DNA from: Nannocystis bainbridge
GTDB taxonomy: Bacteria > Myxococcota_A > Polyangia > Nannocystales > Nannocystaceae
Assembly: GCF_028368995.1 (NCBI RefSeq)
Contig: NZ_JAQNDL010000001.1
Span: 4,448,001 to 4,512,000, forward strand
Reading direction: 5' to 3'
DNA length: 64,000 bases
Positions 52,073 to 62,683 of the stretch are shown in pieces. The position numbers and the translations under genes are program-made. The notes under the pieces are model-generated. The model made no database searches. It was not told the origin of the DNA and saw nothing but the letters and a program-made list of their open reading frames with translations. How positions within the stretch are numbered: the first letter of the stretch is position 1; every line of letters begins with the position of its first letter.

Positions 52073-52216
52073 GACATGTCTTCAAGGGCATGTCGTCGAG
52101 AGCATGTCGTCAAGGGCATGTCCCGGACGACATGCTGCTGGGGGCATGTCCTGAGGATGGCCGGTGTCGCCCGGGCTTGCGCGTGACATGTCGCGATGGA
52201 CATGTCCTCAGGGTCA
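52073..52216. repeat. 14-bp period array
   Basis: CATG at 52075, 52089, 52103, 52117, 52131, 52145; last unit TGTCCTCAGGGTCA (52203-52216) contains the stop of the next gene. Confidence 0.88.
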
Positions 52217-54010
52217 CTCGGGCGGCAGCAGCGCGAGGTCGAGGCCGCCCGGGTACCAGTAGCTGCCGTAGTCCATCACGCCGTAGGTGCTGACGCCGAA
52301 CTTCACGTTCGAGCTCATGCTGTGGCCGCCGGTGGCGGTGTCCGGCAGCTCGAGGTGGGCCATCGAGTAGCCGGCGCCGATCGGCTTGAAGCCGGTGACC
52401 ATCGCGCCGTCGACGGTGATCGTCGCGCCGTCGGGGGCGATGATGTCGGCGAAGTTCTGGACCCACAGCTTGTTGGCGTAGACGATGTAGTTGTCGCGGT
52501 ACTGCAGGATGGGGACCGCCTGGACCATCGCGGGGTCGCTGGTGCCGTAGCCGGCCTCCTGGCTGACCATGTACTGGACGACGAGGACGCGCTTGTCGGC
52601 GTCGACCTTGAAGCGGGCCACGGAGGTGGCGATCTCGATGAACTCGCCGGCCTTGGCGATCTTCTTGGCCGCGTTCTGATCGGGGGTGTAGACGAGGTTG
52701 GTGTCGTCCTCGGCGGCGATGATGCGGACGAAGGTGGCCTTCTCGAGGGCGTTGTCGGGGGTCTGGACCGGCGGGCCGACGAAGTACTCGCCAGACAGGG
52801 TCTCGAGCGGGAACAGCGACTCCTCGAGGTGATCGCAGGCGACGACGCCGATCGGGACCTGGGTGCATTCGTGGCCGCCGATGACCTGGACGGGCTTGTC
52901 GGCGTGCACGAACGAGCCGGTGAGGTCGCCGCCGGCCGCGCTGTAGACGGTGAGCACGTCGCCGGTGTTGAGCAGGGCCATGCCGCTGCCCTTGGCATCG
53001 ACGCCGCCGCCGGCCTGGGTGTTGGTGCCGCCGGGCGGACCCTGCAGCTTGACGATGGTGTTGTCGCGGCTGGCGACGACCGAGTAGAAGCCAGGCAGCA
53101 GGTAGTCGTCCCAGTACTGCCAGGAGGCGACCACGTAGTTGCCGGTCCAGGTGTTGACGGGGAGCAGCAGCGAGGCGTCGTTCGACTGGGACGCGTTGAG
53201 CGGCATGAACTGGTAGACGGTGACGGGCTTGGTGGCGCGCAGGCGGTAGGCGCCCTTCTTGGCGTGCTTGGTCGGACCTGAGCCCTGGATCAGCTCGGGC
53301 ACGAACGGCAAGGTGATGACCTTGACGTCCTCGGCCGGCACGGTGACCTGGGCGACGAGCTCGTCGCCGCGGGTGATGGTCACCATGGCGGTGGCTTCGG
53401 CGGCGTTGGAGATGGCGACCGCGAACGGGTTGTTGAGGTCGAAGATGTCGTACTGCTGGGTGACGGTCGGGTAGTACTCGCAGCCGATGTAACTGAGGCT
53501 GCCGAGCTTGGCGCAGGCGCCGACGCAGCCGCCGCCCTGGCCGTCGCAGCTGAGGCCGAGCAGCGGGTCGCAGTACTGGCCGGGCTCGTAGGCGGTGCCC
53601 TCGGTGTTGCAGACGAGCTCGTCCTGGCCGTCGCACTGCTTGGTGCCAGGCACACAGTCGACGCAGCCGATCCCGGGGGCGCAGGCGCTGGAGCACGCGG
53701 TCTCGTCGCTGAACCCGCCCATGCCGTCGCACACCTGCGCGAGGTCGCCAGCGCACACGATCTGGCCCTGGGGACACGGACCGGGCGGCGTGGTCGTCGG
53801 TTCGCTCGCGGTCGAATCACTCGTGCCGGTCGCGCTCGAGGTGGTCGGCTCGCCGCTGGTGACGTCGCTCGTCGGCGGCTCGCCGGTGGTGCTGCTGGTC
53901 CCCGGCGCGGTCGCGCTGGTGGGGTTGGCGCTGCCTGTCACCTGACCTGTGCTGTCGCCGCAGGCCGCGAGCACGAGGGCGAGGGGCACACACGAGAGAG
54001 AGCGGACCAT
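52214..54010 (-). CDS. IgGFc-binding-protein N-terminal-domain lipoprotein
   Basis: Lipobox LVLAAC, Thr-rich stalk, Cys-rich repeats, SYIGCEY, SNDASLLLP, GDLTGS, CDHLEE, GSYWYPGG. Confidence 0.82.
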   Translation of the reverse strand: MVRSLSCVPLALVLAACGDSTGQVTGSANPTSATAPGTSSTTGEPPTSDVTSGEPTTSSATGTSDSTASEPTTTPPGPCPQGQIVCAGDLAQVCDGMGGFSDETACSSACAPGIGCVDCVPGTKQCDGQDELVCNTEGTAYEPGQYCDPLLGLSCDGQGGGCVGACAKLGSLSYIGCEYYPTVTQQYDIFDLNNPFAVAISNAAEATAMVTITRGDELVAQVTVPAEDVKVITLPFVPELIQGSGPTKHAKKGAYRLRATKPVTVYQFMPLNASQSNDASLLLPVNTWTGNYVVASWQYWDDYLLPGFYSVVASRDNTIVKLQGPPGGTNTQAGGGVDAKGSGMALLNTGDVLTVYSAAGGDLTGSFVHADKPVQVIGGHECTQVPIGVVACDHLEESLFPLETLSGEYFVGPPVQTPDNALEKATFVRIIAAEDDTNLVYTPDQNAAKKIAKAGEFIEIATSVARFKVDADKRVLVVQYMVSQEAGYGTSDPAMVQAVPILQYRDNYIVYANKLWVQNFADIIAPDGATITVDGAMVTGFKPIGAGYSMAHLELPDTATGGHSMSSNVKFGVSTYGVMDYGSYWYPGGLDLALLPPE

Positions 54011-56191: not shown

Positions 56192-56469
56192 GCCGCGAGT
56201 CTGATCGCACTTGCGCAGGCTCGCCCCGGCGCCCCGAGCGCTCACGGCCTGGCGGGCAGAAGCAGACCCGTGCGGCTGCGGGCTTTGCGCCGGTCGGCGC
56301 GGCGGGCAGGGCGGCGCGTGGCGTGTGCACCCGCTCGTGCGCCGCGATCTGCCACAGGCGCTCGCGGCGTTTCGCCACGGCTGTCCGCGAGGACATGTCT
56401 GATGGGACAGTGACTCCAGGGATTGCTCGGGTTTCGGGGCTGGCCCGCGAGGTGATAATAGAGGCGCTC

Positions 56470-57534
56470 ATGCGTAGCTTGATGGTCTCTTGTTTGGCGC
56501 TGCTCGCCGCCTGCCCGGGCGACGAGGCGACGTCTGTCTCTTCGGCCAGTTCGACGGCCGATCCGCCGAGCACCGGCGGGCCGGCGACGGACGCGAGCAC
56601 CGGGGGGACGCCGACGACCGGCGCGACGGAGGCGAGCACCACGGACGCGATCACGTCGGAGGCGAGCACCGCGGAGGCCCCGACGAGCACGACGGGCGAG
56701 GCCGGAGTGGCGGGGCTCGAGTTGATGCAGCGGCTGGCGGGCTTGTGGAGCGGGCCGGCCTCGATGACGCCGCTGGGGACGTTCCCGCTGCTGAACATGG
56801 ACCTGCGCGCGGCTTCGGGGCAGGTGCTGTTCAGCCGCGTGGACCTCGACGCGAACAACAGCCTGCGGTTCGCGTTCGCGGTCGAGGACCACGGGTCGGG
56901 GCCGACGCTGGTGTACCGCAACGGCGGTTATTTCCTGGGGATGCTCCGCGACTCGCGGGCGGCGCTGACGGAGCACACGGACTCGAGCTGGCGGTTCTGC
57001 TCGGTCACGAAGGGCTGCGAGTACATCGACGCGACGTTCGCGTTCGACGGCGAGGACCACGTGATCCTCGACGTGAAGGTGAAGGGGATCCAGCACGTGT
57101 ACTGGGACGCGCTGCGCGAGGAGACGCGGGCGCTGCCGGAGCCGTTCCCGGCCGAGGCGCCGCCGCTGGCCCCCGACGCGCCGTTCCCGACGATGCCGAG
57201 CCTGAAGGTCGATGTGTCGTGGGCGGAGCCGCTGGCGGTGGACGGCGGGGTGTGGGCGATCGTGACGACCGAGCCGTGCGACCTGCAGTTCACCTGCAAG
57301 CACAGCCGCTCCCTGCTGGCTTCGGCGCCGGCAGGGGCGACTTCGGCGTCGCTGACGATGGAGCAGATCCACACGGGGCCGTACAAGCTGACGGTGGTGC
57401 TCGACCGCAACGGGAACATGGACGAGACGCTGTTCCCGGACGCGGGCGACGGAGTGTCGCTGCCGAACCAGGCGGTGATGGTGGCGCCGGCAGGCGAGAC
57501 GAGCGTGAAGACGGCGATCGTCGTCGATCTTTGA
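56470..57534 (+). CDS. Hypothetical lipoprotein with Thr/Ser-rich stalk
   Basis: MRSLMVSCLALLAAC lipobox; T/S linker; two beta-rich domains with a DRNGN...D Ca-binding-like loop. Confidence 0.75.
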   Translation: MRSLMVSCLALLAACPGDEATSVSSASSTADPPSTGGPATDASTGGTPTTGATEASTTDAITSEASTAEAPTSTTGEAGVAGLELMQRLAGLWSGPASMTPLGTFPLLNMDLRAASGQVLFSRVDLDANNSLRFAFAVEDHGSGPTLVYRNGGYFLGMLRDSRAALTEHTDSSWRFCSVTKGCEYIDATFAFDGEDHVILDVKVKGIQHVYWDALREETRALPEPFPAEAPPLAPDAPFPTMPSLKVDVSWAEPLAVDGGVWAIVTTEPCDLQFTCKHSRSLLASAPAGATSASLTMEQIHTGPYKLTVVLDRNGNMDETLFPDAGDGVSLPNQAVMVAPAGETSVKTAIVVDL

Positions 57535-57601
57535 ACGTTGGGACATGTTCAAGGGGGCATGTCCTGATGGGCATGTCCTGTCGGGCATGTTCTTTGATGC
57601 G
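57532..57601. repeat. Five tandem 14-bp units starting at a stop codon
   Basis: TGAACGTTGGGACA-TGTTCAAGGGGGCA-TGTCCTGATGGGCA-TGTCCTGTCGGGCA-TGTTC... Confidence 0.85.
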
Positions 57602-57699
57602 ATCCGGGTCGGGATCCGCCGGGGCATGGCCGGGGTCGGGCTCGCGGATGAATCGAAGCGGGCGCGGCTGCCCGGTCCTTCGGGGCGGCAGGAGGTGCT

Positions 57700-58647
57700 A
57701 TGCTCGCGCGCGTGTCGCCCGAGGTCCTGCGGCTCGCCGCCTTGCTCGAAGAGTCGCTCCGCGCGCTGGCCGAGGTGCCGCTGGCGGAGCTGGTCGCGGG
57801 GCGAGCGCTGCCGGAGCCGAGCGCGGCGCTGGTGGAGCACCTGCGGGCCCACCGGGCGGGGCTGGCGGGCTGGCTGCGCACGCCGGCCTGCGCCGAGGCG
57901 CTGTGCGTGCGGCTGGCCCGGTGGCTGTGGAGCCGCAACCAGTACGTGCGCCTCGATCGCGCGGCGCTGACGGCGGCGTGCGCCCGGGCGGCCGAGGCGC
58001 TGGCCGAGGGGCTCGAGGGCGAAGCTGATCCGAAGGACATGTCCGAACGGCTAGTACGCACGGGACAGGAGCTGCAGGCCCGGGTGGCGGCGCTGGTCCG
58101 CGCGGGCGGGGGCAAGACGGACGTGGTCTGCAGCGAGTACGCGGTGACGCTGCAGCGCGACGCGCTCGGGCTCGGCGACGCGCCGCTGGCAGCGCCGGTG
58201 CTCGACGTCGGCTGCGGGGCGTCGGCAGGGTTCGTGCGCGCGCTGCGAGCGGAAGGGGTGGCGGCGACCGGGCTCGACCGCGAGGCGCCAGAGGACGTGG
58301 CGCTGGTGGGCGACTGGTTGAGCTTCCCGTTCGGGCAGGATCGCTGGGGCACGATCGTGTCGCACCAGGCGTTCTCGCTCCACTTCGTGCATCAACACCT
58401 GGCGCAGGGGCCGGAGGCGTACGCGTACGCGCGGGTGTACATGGCGATGCTGCGAGCGCTGAAGCCGGGCGGGCGGCTGGTGTACGCGCCAGGGCTGCCG
58501 TTCGTCGAGGGGATGCTGCCGAAGGCGACGTACCGCTGCACGCGAGTGCCGCTGCCAGAGGCGATGATGAGCGAGGCGGTGCACGCGCTCGAGCGCGCGG
58601 CCGGGTTCGAGCTGGCGTACGCAGCCCACGTGGAGCGGCTGGCCTGA
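57700..58647 (+). CDS. Class I SAM-dependent methyltransferase-like protein
   Basis: VLDVGCG motif I, GLD motif II, GDWL, LKPGGRL. Confidence 0.75.
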   Translation: MLARVSPEVLRLAALLEESLRALAEVPLAELVAGRALPEPSAALVEHLRAHRAGLAGWLRTPACAEALCVRLARWLWSRNQYVRLDRAALTAACARAAEALAEGLEGEADPKDMSERLVRTGQELQARVAALVRAGGGKTDVVCSEYAVTLQRDALGLGDAPLAAPVLDVGCGASAGFVRALRAEGVAATGLDREAPEDVALVGDWLSFPFGQDRWGTIVSHQAFSLHFVHQHLAQGPEAYAYARVYMAMLRALKPGGRLVYAPGLPFVEGMLPKATYRCTRVPLPEAMMSEAVHALERAAGFELAYAAHVERLA

Positions 58648-58668
58648 GGTTCGTGGTAGCCTCCGGCT

Positions 58669-59988
58669 GTGGGGATCCGCGAGGAGCGTCGCCGCCTGCC
58701 GATCGTGGCGTTGGCCCCGCCGACGCGCTCCCGCAGGGCGCTGCCGATCGCGGCCGGTCAGGCCCCGGTGCCGCGGATCGTGGTGTGGGAGTTCACGAGC
58801 GCGTGCGACCAACACTGCGCCCACTGCGGGCCGCGCTCGGGCAAGCGACGGCGCGATGAGCTGACGACCGAGGAGGCGCTGCGCCTGTGCGACGAGCTGG
58901 CGGCGGCCGGGGTCGGCGAGGTGACGCTGATCGGGGGGGAGGCGTACCTGCGCCCGGACGTGCTGCAGATCGTGCGAGCGATCCGCGAGCGCGGGATGAG
59001 CTGCACGATGACGACCGGCGGCTACAGCCTGACGGCCGAGATCGCGGAGGCGCTGGTCGAGGCGGGGGTGCAGAGCGTGTCGGTGTCGATCGACGGATTG
59101 GCGGCCTGCCACGACGCGCTGCGGGGGCGACCGAAGAGCTTCGAGCGGGCGTTCGCGGCGCTGCGCCACCTGAAGGCGGCAGGCTCACAGGTGTCGGCGA
59201 ACACGCAGATCAACACGAGGACGCTGCCGGACCTGGAGGGGCTGCTCGAGCTGCTGGCGCCGGAGGGGATCCACAGCTGGCAGGTGCAGGTGACGATGGC
59301 GCACGGGGCAGCGGCGGACCACCCGGAGATCTTGCTGCAGCCGTACGAGATGCTGGCGGCGTACGAGGTGGTGGAGCGGCTGCTGGCCCGCTGCGAGGCG
59401 CTGGGGATCCGTCTGTACCCGGGCAACAGCCTGGGATACTTCGGTCCGCTCGAGCACCGGCTGCGCCGCAACTCGACGCAGCGCGGGCACTACTTCGGCT
59501 GTCAGGCGGGGATCTCGGGGGCGGCGGTGTCGAGCCACGGCGAGGTGAAGAGCTGCCCGAGCCTGGGGGATGAAGGGGTGGGCGGGTCGTGGCGCGAGCA
59601 CGGGTTCGCGGCGCTGTGGGAGCGCGCGCCGGAGATCGTGTACATGCGCCAGCGGACCCGCGCGGAGCTGTGGGGGCTGTGCGCGAGCTGCTACTACGCG
59701 GCGGTGTGCATGGGCGGCTGCACTTCGATGAGCGAGCCGCTGCTCGGCCGCCCGGGCAACAACCCGATGTGCCACCACCGAGCGCTCGAGCTCGACCGCC
59801 AGGGGCTGCGTGAACGCATCGAGCCGGTCCGCGCTGCGCCAGGGCAGCCGTTCGACCACGGGCTGTTCCGGCTGATCCGCGAGCACAAGGACCCGGAGCA
59901 GCGGGCGCTCCACGGGCCGGTTCACGTCGACGAGCCGCGGAGGTCCCGGGTCGAGGAGCCGCGCGGGTCAGGCTCGCCGCTCGAGTGA
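58669..59988 (+). CDS. Radical SAM/SPASM peptide maturase, resembling the nif11-class maturase 3 / PlpX splicease family
   Basis: WEFTSACDQHCAHC, EVTLIGGEA, MTTGG, VSVSIDG, NTQIN, PGN..GY.GP, GCQAG, CPSL, LWG.CASC....VCMGGC, GNNP.CHHRAL, G.PFD.G.F. Confidence 0.85.
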   Translation: MGIREERRRLPIVALAPPTRSRRALPIAAGQAPVPRIVVWEFTSACDQHCAHCGPRSGKRRRDELTTEEALRLCDELAAAGVGEVTLIGGEAYLRPDVLQIVRAIRERGMSCTMTTGGYSLTAEIAEALVEAGVQSVSVSIDGLAACHDALRGRPKSFERAFAALRHLKAAGSQVSANTQINTRTLPDLEGLLELLAPEGIHSWQVQVTMAHGAAADHPEILLQPYEMLAAYEVVERLLARCEALGIRLYPGNSLGYFGPLEHRLRRNSTQRGHYFGCQAGISGAAVSSHGEVKSCPSLGDEGVGGSWREHGFAALWERAPEIVYMRQRTRAELWGLCASCYYAAVCMGGCTSMSEPLLGRPGNNPMCHHRALELDRQGLRERIEPVRAAPGQPFDHGLFRLIREHKDPEQRALHGPVHVDEPRRSRVEEPRGSGSPLE

Positions 59989-59992
59989 GGGC

Positions 59993-60075
59993 TGGGCTTC
60001 AGGACATGTCCTGAAGAATGTCGAGTTTCGAGATGGTCGCGAGGACATGTCTGACGCGACATGTCCTCAGGGACA
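59993..60075. repeat. 14-bp unit clusters between convergent genes
   Basis: CTTCAGGACATGTCCTGAAG perfect palindrome; GGACATGTCTGACGCGACATGTCCTCAGGGACA. Confidence 0.8.
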
Positions 60076-60085
60076 ATCAGGACGG

Positions 60086-60664
60086 TCAGTGCAGGTCGTC
60101 GATCTGGGCCGGCGGGGCGCCGTAGGGCAGCGGCAGGGTGTCGAAGGTGTCGTTGGTGGTCGAGTCGGTGTCGGTGCCCGTGCTCGTGGTGGTGGTGCCG
60201 TCGGTGTCGAGGGTGGTGGTGCCCTCGGTGTCGCCGGTGGTGGTGGTGGTGTCGAGGGTGGTGGTGCCGTCGGTGTCGAGGGTGGTGGTGCCCTCGCTGG
60301 TGACGGTGGCGCTGTCGGAGGCGGTCTCGGTCGGGTCGCCCGGGCCAGTCGTCGAGGCGCCGGTGGTGGCCGAGGTGCCGGTGTCACTGGCAGTGCCGGT
60401 GTCGCTGACCGTGCCGGTGTCCGTGGTGGTGACGGGCTCCTGGGTGGTCTGCGTCCCCTGCGAGGTGCCGCTGTCGCTGCCGTCGCTGTCGCTGCCGACC
60501 GTCTCGTTCTTCGACGGCTCGGAGCAGGCGGTGAGGCCGAGGCCGAGCACCGCGCCGAGCACGAGGGCGGGGAACGTCGGGGCCGAACGCAGCGGCGCGG
60601 CGCAGAAGCAGCAGGTGGCGACGTCGCCCAGGATGTGACGGGAGCACGCGGGACAGAGCTGCAC
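60086..60664 (-). CDS. Zinc-ribbon leader plus lipoprotein-like Thr-rich protein ending in PLPYGAPP (candidate radical SAM substrate)
   Basis: GTG start; CPAC-x10-CCFC; hydrophobic stretch ending GLTAC; Thr/Asp repeats; terminal LPYGAPP. Confidence 0.75.
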   Translation of the reverse strand: MQLCPACSRHILGDVATCCFCAAPLRSAPTFPALVLGAVLGLGLTACSEPSKNETVGSDSDGSDSGTSQGTQTTQEPVTTTDTGTVSDTGTASDTGTSATTGASTTGPGDPTETASDSATVTSEGTTTLDTDGTTTLDTTTTTGDTEGTTTLDTDGTTTTSTGTDTDSTTNDTFDTLPLPYGAPPAQIDDLH

Positions 60665-60873
60665 GGGGGCAGCATAGGCGAGTTCGCGGGCGCCGAGTAG
60701 ACCGCGCGATCGTCGGCGAGCGCGGGATGAGAGGAATGCCGGCTGCGCGCAGCGCGAGCTACGAGCGCGATGGGGAGGTTCGCACGCGCCACGGTCGAGC
60801 ACGCTCGCGGCTCCCAGGCCGGAGCGGCGAGGGAGCCCCCGACCCGGGCGGACTCGCGCGGAGGCGAATCAGA

Positions 60874-60933
60874 TGTCCCGCGGGACAGGTGGCGAGGTTT
60901 CGTGATGTCCTCGAGGACATGTCCTCGAGGGCA
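60874..60933. repeat. 14-bp units
   Basis: TGTCCCGCGGGACA (60874) and TGTCCTCGAGGACA-TGTCCTCGAGGGCA (60906-60933). Confidence 0.85.
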
Positions 60934-60951
60934 TATCGACGCGCAGCGCGC

Positions 60952-61680
60952 TCACGGGCACTCGGGCAGGGGGCCGTCCATGCAGGGCTCGAAGCCGGGG
61001 GGCGTGCAGCCGGAGGCGACGTCGAAGGCGAGGGCGGGCTGGTCGAGTGGGCAGACGGTGACGACGGCGGGCGGGCAGGGCGGCTGCAGCTTGTCGCAGG
61101 CGAGGAACTGCGGGGCGTCGAAGTCGGCGCAGAGCATCATGTCCTGTTCGACGTGGGGGGCACCGAAGTGGGCGGTGCAGTTGGGATCGATGGCGCACTC
61201 GGCCTCGTTGACTCCGAGGCAGTCCTCGCCGCACAGGGTGACCATGGTGGTGCAGGGCTCGAGGCCGGGCGGGATGCAGGTGTCGTCGAGCAGGTAGATC
61301 TCGAGGCTGTCGGGGCGGCAGGCGATGGTGGGCGTGGCGGCGCAGTCGGTCTGGACGATGCAGCCGAGGAAGGCCAGGTTGGGGGTGCAGCCGGGGAATT
61401 CGTAAGGGGTGCCGAGGACGGCGCGGCAGCCGGGTGTGGCGCTGCAGGCGAGCTCGTCGAGGTCGGCGCAGGCGAGGCCTTCGGTGGTGCTGCCGGTGGT
61501 CGGTTGCGCCTCGGTGGTGGTGCCGTCGGTCGTGGTGGTCTCGCTGGCGGTGCCCGTGGCGGTCGTGTCGGGCTCGACGGTCGAGGCGTCGCTGTCGCTG
61601 TCACCGCCCGAGTCCTTGGGATCGCCGACGATCTGGCAGGCGGACAGGACGAGGAGGAGCGCAGGGTGGAAGAACCGCAT
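60952..61680 (-). CDS. Cys-rich lipoprotein with Thr stalk and two internal repeats
   Basis: LLLVLSAC lipobox; two ~75-aa modules C..L.E..C...P.C....G.P ... C.PPG.EPC. Confidence 0.78.
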   Translation of the reverse strand: MRFFHPALLLVLSACQIVGDPKDSGGDSDSDASTVEPDTTATGTASETTTTDGTTTEAQPTTGSTTEGLACADLDELACSATPGCRAVLGTPYEFPGCTPNLAFLGCIVQTDCAATPTIACRPDSLEIYLLDDTCIPPGLEPCTTMVTLCGEDCLGVNEAECAIDPNCTAHFGAPHVEQDMMLCADFDAPQFLACDKLQPPCPPAVVTVCPLDQPALAFDVASGCTPPGFEPCMDGPLPECP

Positions 61681-61891
61681 GGGCGCAAGCATAAGAGATG
61701 GGTCGCGCTCGCGGTTCGCGGAGGCTGTCCTTTGGGCAAGGTCGAGCTCGCCGGGGTGCGGGCAGGCGGCCGCAGGCGCGGGCTGCGAGGGGCGGTAGAT
61801 CGCACTCGCGCGAGGGGCGCGAGGGCGCGCTCGCGGGACGCATGCGTGACGCGGCGGAGCGAGGCGGCGATCGGTGCATAATGCGGACACG

Positions 61892-62683
61892 ATGGCCACG
61901 TCCGAGTCCGCCCCGAGCGATGCCCCGTCTCACGCCGCCGAGGCGGCCCTCGCCGACGCCGAGCGGCGACTGGCAGCGCTGAGCGCCGAGCTGCAGGCGA
62001 CGCGCGAGTCACTCGACCGCGAACGTTCGCAGCGCGCGGGGTGGGACCTCGAGCGCGGCGGGCTGCGGGGCGACCTGGCCGAGGCGCGCCGTCGACTCGA
62101 CGCGGAGGCGCAAGCGCACGCGCAGACCCGCGGGGCGCACGACCTGATCGAGAGCCGGGTGGCGGCGGCGGAGACCGAGGTGGCCGACGCGCGGCGCGAG
62201 GCGAACCGTCAGCGCGAGCGCGGCGACAGGGCGCAGCGCGAGCTGGACGAGGCGCGCCGCGAGCTCGAGGCCGAACGCAGCAATCACCGGGCGACGCGCG
62301 AGCGGACGGAGGCGCTCGAGGGCGGGCGCGCGAAGGCAGGACAAGAGCTGACGAGCTTGCAGGCGCAGGTCGAGCGGGCGGTGGCGGACGCGAACGAGCT
62401 GCGGCTGAAGTTGACGGCCGATCAGACGGTGCTGCTCGAGGCCCAGGCGCGCTGCGAGGCGCAGGCGAAGGAGCTGACGCTGCTCGGCGAGCGAGCGGCG
62501 GCGGCGAAGCGCGCCCTGGCCGACGAGACAGGGGCGCACGCGGAGACGCGGCGCCGGCTCGAGGAGCTGCGGGAGTCGCTCCACGAGGACGAGCGCCGTC
62601 GCCAGCGCAAGACGATCGCGGGGGTGGTGGGCGGTGCAGCGCTCGGTGCGGCGCTGTTCCTGCGGCGCCGGCTCGGCGGGTGA
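61892..62683 (+). CDS. Coiled-coil protein with C-terminal membrane anchor
   Basis: A/E/R/L-rich heptads; terminal IAGVVGGAALGAALFL followed by RRR. Confidence 0.75.
   Translation: MATSESAPSDAPSHAAEAALADAERRLAALSAELQATRESLDRERSQRAGWDLERGGLRGDLAEARRRLDAEAQAHAQTRGAHDLIESRVAAAETEVADARREANRQRERGDRAQRELDEARRELEAERSNHRATRERTEALEGGRAKAGQELTSLQAQVERAVADANELRLKLTADQTVLLEAQARCEAQAKELTLLGERAAAAKRALADETGAHAETRRRLEELRESLHEDERRRQRKTIAGVVGGAALGAALFLRRRLGG

Follow-up and report, generated by a model that had tools for sequence, protein, structure and literature searches.

A radical SAM/SPASM enzyme and a zinc-ribbon lipoprotein with a Tyr-Gly site form a conserved pair in Nannocystis bainbridge and are a candidate binary splicease system

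Spliceases are, to our knowledge, the sole known route to ribosomal alpha-keto-beta-amino acids. Here we describe two convergent genes of the soil myxobacterium Nannocystis bainbridge that probably form a splicease-type unit of enzyme and substrate. They lie in a 64,000-nucleotide stretch of contig NZ_JAQNDL010000001.1 (positions 4,448,001 to 4,512,000 of the forward strand; G+C approximately 72%), hereafter the window, and encode a radical S-adenosylmethionine (SAM)/SPASM enzyme and a protein with a zinc ribbon, a lipoprotein-type signal, a low-complexity stalk and a Tyr-Gly site (Table 1). The closest described relatives include the type I systems PlpA/PlpX/PlpY and PcpAXY of Pleurocapsa (TIGR04103), whose precursors likewise carry x-Y-G sites in a P-x-Y-G-x-P context, with several sites per precursor possible. 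The window enzyme belongs to the same superfamily but probably to a sister clade, and it scores 388.8 bits on TIGR04103 against a cut-off of 725. The system also differs from PlpAXY in having no Y protein and in the occurrence of Y-A variants of the site. Furthermore, it would use as leader a zinc ribbon embedded in a lipoprotein signal, whereas PlpAXY-type systems use a Nif11/NHLP domain, and its product would be a lipid-anchored protein rather than a released peptide.

Two-component systems without a Y protein have been described in Rheinheimera (type II; RhaA/RhaX, RasA/RasX and RcsA/RcsX) (PMC11414181; PMC11626197). The lack of PlpY is expected in the window because spliceases outside cyanobacteria are reported to be binary and to operate without a Y protein (PMC11414181). 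When the RhaA leader was relocated to the RhaX C-terminus, the resulting enzyme was active and leader-independent, and the authors regard the leader mainly as an activator (PMC11414181). The zinc ribbon, which we find on either the substrate or the enzyme (see below), parallels this engineered fusion. The activating element in Rheinheimera is an alpha-helix of the peptide leader, whereas that of the window would be a zinc ribbon predicted to sit on the GYFGPLE loop and the CYY motif of the enzyme. The Rheinheimera products are small disulfide-bridged peptides, and the likeness is drawn from published descriptions of these systems.

The equal-best match of the window enzyme is TIGR03913, the "GDL motif peptide-associated radical SAM/SPASM maturase" of Pseudomonas and Pyrinomonadaceae, which has a homologous ribbon. 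In this family the ribbon and a helix occupy model positions ~393–477 of the enzyme itself; the window enzyme matches positions 16–392 only, and its ribbon is on the neighboring gene. The TIGR03913 neighbors are cytoplasmic DUF1842-DUF1843 proteins, whereas the window has no DUF1843 neighbors and the partner is lipoprotein-like. In true TIGR03913 loci of Pseudomonas (L087, 2292–3807; L091), a DUF1843 peptide of 63 amino acids and two DUF1842-DUF1843 proteins, presumably the "GDL motif peptides" of NCBI, precede the enzyme. Each Pseudomonas DUF1843 begins at [PL]-Y-[GA] (VVPYGVAI, SALYAAPI), which suggests the same Tyr-directed chemistry on cytoplasmic proteins. The TIGR04133/TIGR04134 systems of Bacteroides ("lipo_with_rSAM") also pair a radical SAM/SPASM enzyme with a lipoprotein. 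TIGR04134 proteins have a YG-x-P motif, and we know of no zinc ribbon in the family. TIGR04133 is the third-best NCBIfam match of the window enzyme (157.1 bits; cut-off 425), and TIGR04134 matches neither the partner nor any protein of the genome.

Mining of YG-rich open reading frames (ORFs) beside radical SAM-SPASM genes in 189 genera yielded 27 confirmed pairs (Scott et al., 2022; PMC10849128), and 939 spliceotide systems have been predicted (PMC10533398). The loci described here may already be catalogued in the former. Spliceotide systems, including binary ones, are already known; the ribbon/lipoprotein partner family is unnamed in Pfam, NCBIfam and Atlas. The literature searched contained no paper joining a splicease with a lipoprotein and, among the spliceotide papers listed, no title or abstract opening that mentions a zinc ribbon or a lipoprotein; it offered nothing relevant on TIGR03913, TIGR04133, TIGR04103, TIGR04134 or "GDL motif".

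The pairing of the enzyme with a zinc-ribbon lipoprotein is conserved within the genome and well beyond it. The N. bainbridge genome (11 Mb) encodes three close paralogs of the enzyme (58–60% identity) and one at 43%. In the 13 kb examined around each, all five enzymes adjoin an ORF with a ribbon, lipobox and stalk at 104–295 bp. The partner is convergent with the enzyme in the window (104 bp; site LPLPYGAPP), L011 (112 bp; SFYGGCP followed by a Cys-rich domain), L012 (206 bp; EP[ED]YGVP repeated four times) and L009 (295 bp; TYAGPD, TYAGPD and TYAGAD), and in tandem with it in L010 (168 bp; FIYAAPD followed by a Cys-rich domain). In the window the stop codons of the two genes are 97 bp apart. 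We scanned all six frames of the genome for ribbons that precede a hydrophobic run and obtained 83 ORFs, 40 of them with coding-like G+C content at third codon positions. The full architecture was matched by just seven ORFs in the six-frame regular-expression scan, a search for paralogs that the preliminary description of this DNA, made from the sequence alone, had proposed; five are the enzyme neighbors and two are orphans. Outside the genome, an alignment-based scan that covered one genome per species yielded 520 relatives. We retained 80 loci, and in 61 of them a ribbon/hydrophobic ORF lies no more than 1.5 kb from the enzyme, irrespective of side and strand. These loci are spread across families and phyla. 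Clustering of the flanking ORFs of 85 loci revealed no other conserved neighbor and no third gene such as PlpY or a RiPP (peptide made on the ribosome and then modified post-translationally) recognition element (RRE), in agreement with the preliminary description, which had seen none in the window. The convergent zinc-ribbon lipoprotein that it had proposed as the partner of the enzyme is indeed supported as such.

Some loci depart from the simple pair. The two orphan ribbon/lipobox proteins (C1:2357728–2358150, minus strand, LSGCLVTAVYGVPATE; C4:322262–322624, plus strand, CNLSDPQPEYGSPD) have Tyr-Gly directly after the lipobox Cys and no paralogous enzyme nearby (the nearest to the C1 orphan is 502 kb away, and C4 holds none of the five). 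One of the five enzymes may act on them in trans. Six loci (L015, L048, L057, L065, L078 and L083) have two or three tandem ribbon/Tyr-Gly genes per enzyme, a multi-precursor arrangement like that of RiPP clusters. For example, L083 has three such genes at 204, 815 and 1391 bp from the enzyme.

The Tyr site is the second conserved feature of the partners. Beyond the signal region these proteins are of low complexity and barely alignable except near the Tyr. We counted motifs in the 71 partners with a recognizable lipobox; nine of 80 ORFs were dropped on failure of the regular expression (e.g., ...LGALETAC), and the counted rows include a pilin-like false match (L066_1) and a protein cut by a contig end (L068_0). 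Gly follows Tyr in 96 of 160 cases and Ala in 32 of 160, against backgrounds of 16.8 and 9.1% in the same sequences, and Pro stands at +3 in 97 of 153 (background 7.3%). The preceding residue is variable (T, A, L, P, D or E). The motif Y[GA]x[PA] is present in 64 of the 71 proteins, so that the conservation of YG that the preliminary description predicted for precursor homologs is borne out, with Y-A at ~20% of sites. The seven proteins without the motif are L066_1, L068_0, two from L057 (LYGPI and LYGPV), L063 and L064 (PYSCPP) and L018 (EYSVAD). As a control, we used 547 ribbon-less lipoprotein-like ORFs from the same genome, which have Y[GA]xP at 28 of 1990 Tyr as compared to 97 of 160 in the partners, an enrichment of ~40-fold in the latter. 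In the stalk-type subset of the control (209 ORFs), the count is 10 of 749 Tyr.

The sites resemble those of known spliceases. True TIGR04103 loci, examined as a positive control, have Nif11-type precursors with [IV]QP[LM]YG[VI] sites and, in one case, VRPMYGLPP. Intermediate enzymes adjoin proteins of 190–200 amino acids with four or five VQPKYGLP repeats, and QPVYGAP is found in the ribbon partner of a Sericytochromatia enzyme. Splice tags used with PlpXY in protein engineering read GPIRP[L/G]YGLPI (PMC10533398). Because the partner sites match both the sites of TIGR04103 loci and these tags, they belong to the same P-x-Y-G-x-P series. The intermediate loci L112 (458–1060, minus strand) and L113 (3095–3664, plus strand) are both from Cyanobacteriota; the enzymes score ~630 bits on TIGR04103, below the cut-off, and the neighbors (190–201 amino acids with four or five repeats of VQPKYGLP[MA] or LQPMYGLP[TS]) are protein-sized multi-site candidate substrates.

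The number and position of the sites vary among partners. The preliminary description had placed the site at the tip of the stalk; this holds for the orthologue group of the window, which alone has a single near-C-terminal site, and in the other partners one to five sites lie internally or the site is followed by a Cys-rich domain. Mapping the motif class on the enzyme tree required 24 changes; 200 shuffles needed 36.9 on average and never fewer than 28. The lower count hints at co-diversification; kinship alone could produce the same pattern, and we do not use it as evidence. We also considered triceptide-like cyclophane or sactionine chemistry and set it aside; Gly and Ala predominate at +1 and +2, and the site lacks a conserved Cys.

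The enzyme has both the radical SAM motif and the auxiliary-cluster SPASM cysteines expected of a splicease. Pfam recognizes Radical_SAM (92.2 bits) and, just below the cut-off of 21.5, SPASM (19.7 bits; residues 278–342). The solved structures nearest to the enzyme (SkfB, BlsE and PqqE) match the generic radical SAM core only. On NCBIfam the enzyme matches the PlpX family (TIGR04103) and TIGR03913 (389 bits; cut-off 591.75) equally well. As both scores are below the cut-offs, the enzyme is an equivalog of neither family, yet it is far closer to both than to others. True TIGR04103 members from Cyanobacteriota score 805–862 bits, and a match above the cut-off was found in 16 of 301 genomes. We placed the enzyme in a tree of 107 enzymes (IQ-TREE quick search, LG+G4, with the Shimodaira-Hasegawa-like approximate likelihood ratio test as the only support), using three other SPASM enzymes from the genome as the outgroup. 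The window enzyme falls among the 58 members of a Nannocystaceae clade (support 100). The sister of this clade is a group of 44 enzymes (support 95) that includes TIGR03913 (six; support 100), a Polyangia/Labilithrix clade with ribbon partners (17; support 90) and a cyanobacterial clade (21; support 99), inside which the true TIGR04103 members form a group of 15 (support 100). L012 and one Sandaracinus sequence are at the base, both on long branches, and the root is insecure because the three outgroup branches are very long. The profile scores and the tree support membership in the PlpX/TIGR03913 superfamily, in a clade that is probably sister to the one holding both TIGR04103 and TIGR03913. 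Hence, the earlier assignment to PlpX or nif11-class maturase 3 stands at the level of the superfamily and fails at that of the TIGR04103 family. Nannocystis exedens DSM 71 has the closest relative, an orthologous enzyme (95% identity) that adjoins an orthologue of the partner (73% identity). The system is common, with homologs at E ≤ 1e-90 in 92 of 401 sampled Myxococcota genomes and in 68 of 255 genera.

The partner gene was delimited within a longer opposing ORF (60086..60802, minus strand) in the program-made ORF list from which the enzyme ORF was also taken. We took the GTG at 60664 as the start, which yields a protein of 192 amino acids, and preferred it because the ribbons of the paralogous partners begin 3–6 residues after their starts. 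Of the two Tyr in the long ORF (residues 43 and 227), the first precedes the chosen start, and the 192-residue protein therefore has a single Tyr. Every element that the preliminary description had reported was found where it placed them: the enzyme, CPAC...CCFC, the GLTAC lipobox, the Thr stalk, LPLPYGAPP and the single Tyr. When 36 partners were aligned, invariance was confined to the four Cys of the ribbon and the Cys of the lipobox, and P19 and F20 (CPFC) of the ribbon are conserved in at least 90%. The hydrophobic run of the window partner (LGLGLTAC) closes with the lipobox-like Cys47, whose position is kept in all 36 proteins, mostly in lipobox-like contexts; the regular expression matched such a Cys in 71 of the 80 partner ORFs. 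Lipidation and signal peptidase II cleavage would be expected at this residue. As the lipobox Cys is invariant, the ribbon would be cut away with the signal peptide and be missing from the displayed protein. This modifies the membrane-anchored display envisaged earlier. Pfam and NCBIfam have no family match for the partner and no Nif11- or NHLP-type leader. In Atlas it falls in Myxococcota clusters that are unnamed or called "zinc-ribbon domain-containing", with no structural match above a template modeling score of 0.34, and the Atlas model of the whole protein has a mean predicted local distance difference test (pLDDT) of 0.38.

We also identified the ribbon as part of the enzyme itself. Six TIGR03913-type enzymes (two from Pseudomonas, three from Pyrinomonadaceae and one from another member of the Acidobacteriota) have an in-frame C-terminal ribbon (...LCRGC.RHV......CPFC...) followed by a helical tail of ~40 amino acids. 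The partner ribbons share the same C-x2-C-x-R-H...CPFC pattern. Three fused enzymes that were scanned are above the TIGR03913 cut-off (Pseudomonas L087, 1020 bits; L076, 624 bits; L079, 630 bits), and the family model covers the ribbon. A hidden Markov model (HMM) of 24 ribbon columns was built from the partners and searched against 120,667 sequences (the six-frame ORFs of the genome and the 80 locus enzymes). Six of the genome's own partners came first (E 3e-8 to 6e-5), and five of the six fused enzymes came directly below them (E 0.0024–0.0088; the sixth had E 0.31). These matches would fit a homologous ribbon that moved naturally between the N-terminus of the substrate and the C-terminus of the enzyme, a proposal that we hold tentatively and jointly with the reading of the partners as a class of spliced lipoproteins (see below).

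A model of the complex supports docking of the ribbon on the enzyme. We modeled the enzyme, with an alignment of 45 sequences, together with residues 1–32 of the partner, which are the ribbon alone. The interface score ipSAE was 0.83 (0.83, 0.82 and 0.85 in individual runs), and the best of three controls reached 0.02. In a benchmark, 116 of 157 solved complexes reached the mark for this score, as did 2 of 215 mismatched pairs; these counts are a rough guide here, where our own alignments were used. The three runs share 100% of the contacts, with a partner pLDDT of 81–82. The predicted contacts involve enzyme residues 258–264 (FGPLEHR), 272, 274, 342–343 (YY) and 346 and partner residues 1, 3, 7–10 (C-S-R-H), 12 and 19. 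The whole superfamily conserves GY[FY]GP. The CYY motif is kept by the Nannocystaceae (61), Polyangia (17) and fused TIGR03913 (6) enzymes, and the true TIGR04103 enzymes (15) have CEF in its place. Retention of CYY in ribbon-associated groups only fits a ribbon-specific contact. The natural fusions and the complex model back the idea, already in the preliminary description, that the ribbon is the element by which the enzyme recognizes its substrate. Enzymes with ribbon partners also have an N-terminal extension of ~35 amino acids with R-R-R-LP[IV]V or RRxLPL motifs (58669–58800 in the window; also L009–L011, L057, L067, L078 and L080). It is absent from true TIGR04103 enzymes, and TIGR03913 enzymes carry another (ARYLS..D). 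This extension, which is outside the contacts of the complex model, is a possible second docking element.

We propose, with a rough probability of 0.6, that the two convergent genes are a binary spliceotide-type enzyme-substrate unit in which an extended lipoprotein signal peptide is the leader. The 192-residue precursor would be made in the cytoplasm with an N-terminus that combines the ribbon, a basic linker, the hydrophobic segment and the lipobox Cys. The ribbon would dock on the enzyme through the GYFGPLE loop and the SPASM CYY motif and serve as a leader or activator, as comparison and modeling indicate. The enzyme would then act at x-Y-[G/A]-x-P, here LPLP-Y-GAPP, and excise a tyramine equivalent. 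Export by Sec, lipidation of Cys47 and cleavage by signal peptidase II would follow, the last step removing the ribbon leader. What remains after cleavage would be a disordered stalk, anchored by its lipid and bearing at least one ketoamide residue; in the orthologue group of the window there would be one, near the C-terminus. To judge from what ketoamides do in other spliceotides (PMC11626197; PMC9811515), the product may act as a tethered protease inhibitor or a reactive handle.

Several points weigh against this proposal. The window enzyme is below the equivalog cut-offs of both TIGR04103 and TIGR03913, and the literature searched describes no characterized member of its clade. Approximately 20% of the sites are Y-A rather than Y-G and a few partners have Y-S or YGP; the same literature makes no statement on the acceptance of Y-A by spliceases. 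No partner is found within 1.5 kb in 19 of the 80 related loci. Three of these have a ribbon ORF 1.8–3.5 kb away and six have the ribbon fused into the enzyme, leaving ~10 of the 80 unexplained, with no partner in the available DNA, some of it short contigs. Lipoprotein signals do not usually have a folded domain of ~30 amino acids as their n-region. A radical SAM enzyme in the cytoplasm has to act ahead of export, an order of events that we assume. Furthermore, the docking score expresses model confidence rather than a measurement, and it concerns the ribbon alone.

Of the alternatives, the one that survives best accepts the pairing and the Tyr site and changes the reaction to a cross-link, hydroxylation, epimerization or cleavage of the Tyr side chain without rejoining of the backbone. 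SPASM enzymes catalyze many reactions, as the list of NCBIfam matches to the enzyme illustrates, and a score so far below the TIGR04103 cut-off, the separate clade and the Y-A, Y-S and YGP variants would all be compatible with a different outcome. We consider it unlikely on three grounds: the P-x-Y-G-x-P context agrees with known splice tags and grades continuously into the sites of true TIGR04103 loci; Gly or Ala at +1 and +2 offers little side chain for a cross-link; and TIGR04103 and TIGR03913 are each ~230 bits closer to the enzyme than any other family. A second alternative concerns topology. If the hydrophobic segment were an uncleaved signal anchor, the partner would be bitopic, with a cytoplasmic ribbon that tethers the enzyme to the membrane and a stalk that is modified and displayed. 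A plain anchor would leave the lipobox-like Cys (36 of 36 aligned partners) unexplained, and this makes the alternative improbable, even if a ribbon is atypical as an n-region, the complex model favors stable binding to the enzyme, and zinc ribbons joined to transmembrane helices are common in bacteria (Atlas rows with Zn_Ribbon_1 and membrane domains).

The ribbon protein could also assist or regulate the enzyme, for instance as its membrane receptor or chaperone, with the real substrate encoded elsewhere. TIGR03913 offers a precedent, as the ribbon belongs to the enzyme there and the likely substrates are separate DUF1843 proteins. We regard this as very unlikely for the window because the partners conserve nothing but Tyr-Gly outside the signal region, because this motif is strongly enriched over control lipoproteins and matches the known target of the enzyme family, and because the 85 loci offer no other conserved neighbor. 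Chance adjacency of an orphan radical SAM gene and one of many Thr-rich lipoproteins, of which the genome has ~209 stalk-type ORFs, is refuted by the restriction of the ribbon to seven such ORFs, five of which flank the five paralogous enzymes, and by the recurrence of the pairing in 61 of 80 loci. The proposed spliceotide-type unit of enzyme and lipoprotein substrate is the reading that we retain.

The preliminary description had suggested, on position, that an upstream methyltransferase-like gene (ORF 57700–58647, plus strand) could be a tailoring enzyme. We rejected this candidate: in the clustering of ORFs that flank 85 loci, the gene groups with the syntenic N. exedens locus alone and is therefore outside the cassette, and its family matches are far below the cut-offs. 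A copy of a 10-base palindrome, GGACATGTCC, lies inside the ORF (58035–58044), and because the ATG of this copy (58039) is in frame, the gene may start there. The product would have ~203 amino acids (MSERLVRTGQ...), with a VLDVGCGASAG SAM-binding motif and weak family matches. Eleven copies of the palindrome lie in the window, where 0.04 would be expected, and the genome as a whole has 956 (86.5 per Mb). The copies inspected (60002 and 60915, with degenerate ones near 60044–60070 and 57563) are all intergenic. Read in the wrong frames, the palindrome gives rise to recurrent "MS..TCP.GH" pseudo-ORF starts. It looks like a repetitive extragenic palindromic (REP)-like repeat or a regulator site. 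A scan of 57400–61200 for promoters and terminators found no promoter-like site and one terminator-like site (57563), with no excess over shuffled sequences. Three further lipoprotein-like genes in the window have Thr/Ser/Asp-rich stalks without a zinc ribbon (52214–54010, minus strand; 56323–57534, plus strand; 60952–61899, minus strand).

Table 1. Features of the enzyme-partner locus and of the surrounding window (positions within the 64,000-nucleotide stretch).
Feature	Position	Strand	Basis
Radical SAM/SPASM enzyme, 439 amino acids, GTG start, Nannocystaceae clade of the splicease superfamily	58669..59988	+	ORF list, profile matches, tree
CxxxCxxC radical SAM cluster motif, C46/C50/C53	58804..58827	+	Invariant in five paralogs and in 45-sequence alignment
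FGPLEHR, residues 258–264, main predicted ribbon contact	59440..59460	+	Complex model
SPASM region, invariant C278, C296, C338, C341, C347, C351 and C368	59500..59772	+	Five paralogs and 45-sequence alignment
YY, residues 342–343, further predicted ribbon contact	59692–59697	+	Complex model
Spacer between convergent stop codons, 97 bp, with GGACATGTCC-type palindromes at 60002–60011 and a degenerate pair at 60044–60070	59989..60085		Sequence, motif count
Putative substrate gene, 192 amino acids: zinc ribbon, lipoprotein-type signal, Thr/Asp stalk, C-terminal PYG site	60086..60664	-	ORF, translation
Candidate modification site LPLPYGAPP within TLPLPYGAPPAQIDDLH; Tyr181 (60122–60124) is the sole Tyr	60110..60136	-	Translation, motif conservation
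Thr/Asp/Ser/Gly stalk, low complexity, residues 48–176	60137..60523	-	Translation
Remaining signal peptide: Arg-containing linker, hydrophobic segment ALVLGAVLGLGLTAC, lipobox LTAC, Cys47 at 60524–60526	60524..60601	-	Cys47 invariant
Zinc ribbon C4-x2-C7 ... C18-x2-C21, CPACSRHILGDVATCCFC (MQL-CPAC-SRHILGDVAT-CCFC)	60602..60655	-	Four Cys invariant in 36 partners
GGACATGTCC copies in the window	18895, 28162, 31594, 46683, 48451, 52198, 58035, 60002, 60915, 62729, 63707		Motif count

The natural end products and roles of spliceases are described as still elusive (PMC9811515). It is possible, at somewhat less than even odds, that the partners described here form a class of backbone-spliced lipoproteins that is widespread in Myxococcota and has relatives in Sericytochromatia and Planctomycetota, and that their ribbon-extended signal peptide is a RiPP leader that activates the splicease. 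The signal peptide being the leader, signal peptidase II would then double as the leader peptidase. The zinc ribbon would provide a compact docking module of ~25 residues, which bears on the building of leader-independent splicing tools. If the proposal is true, the cell would carry lipid-anchored stalks with electrophilic ketoamide residues. Exported lipoprotein substrates would thereby give splicease modifications a defined address, the cell envelope of predatory myxobacteria, and make their function testable as a tethered protease inhibitor or covalent handle.

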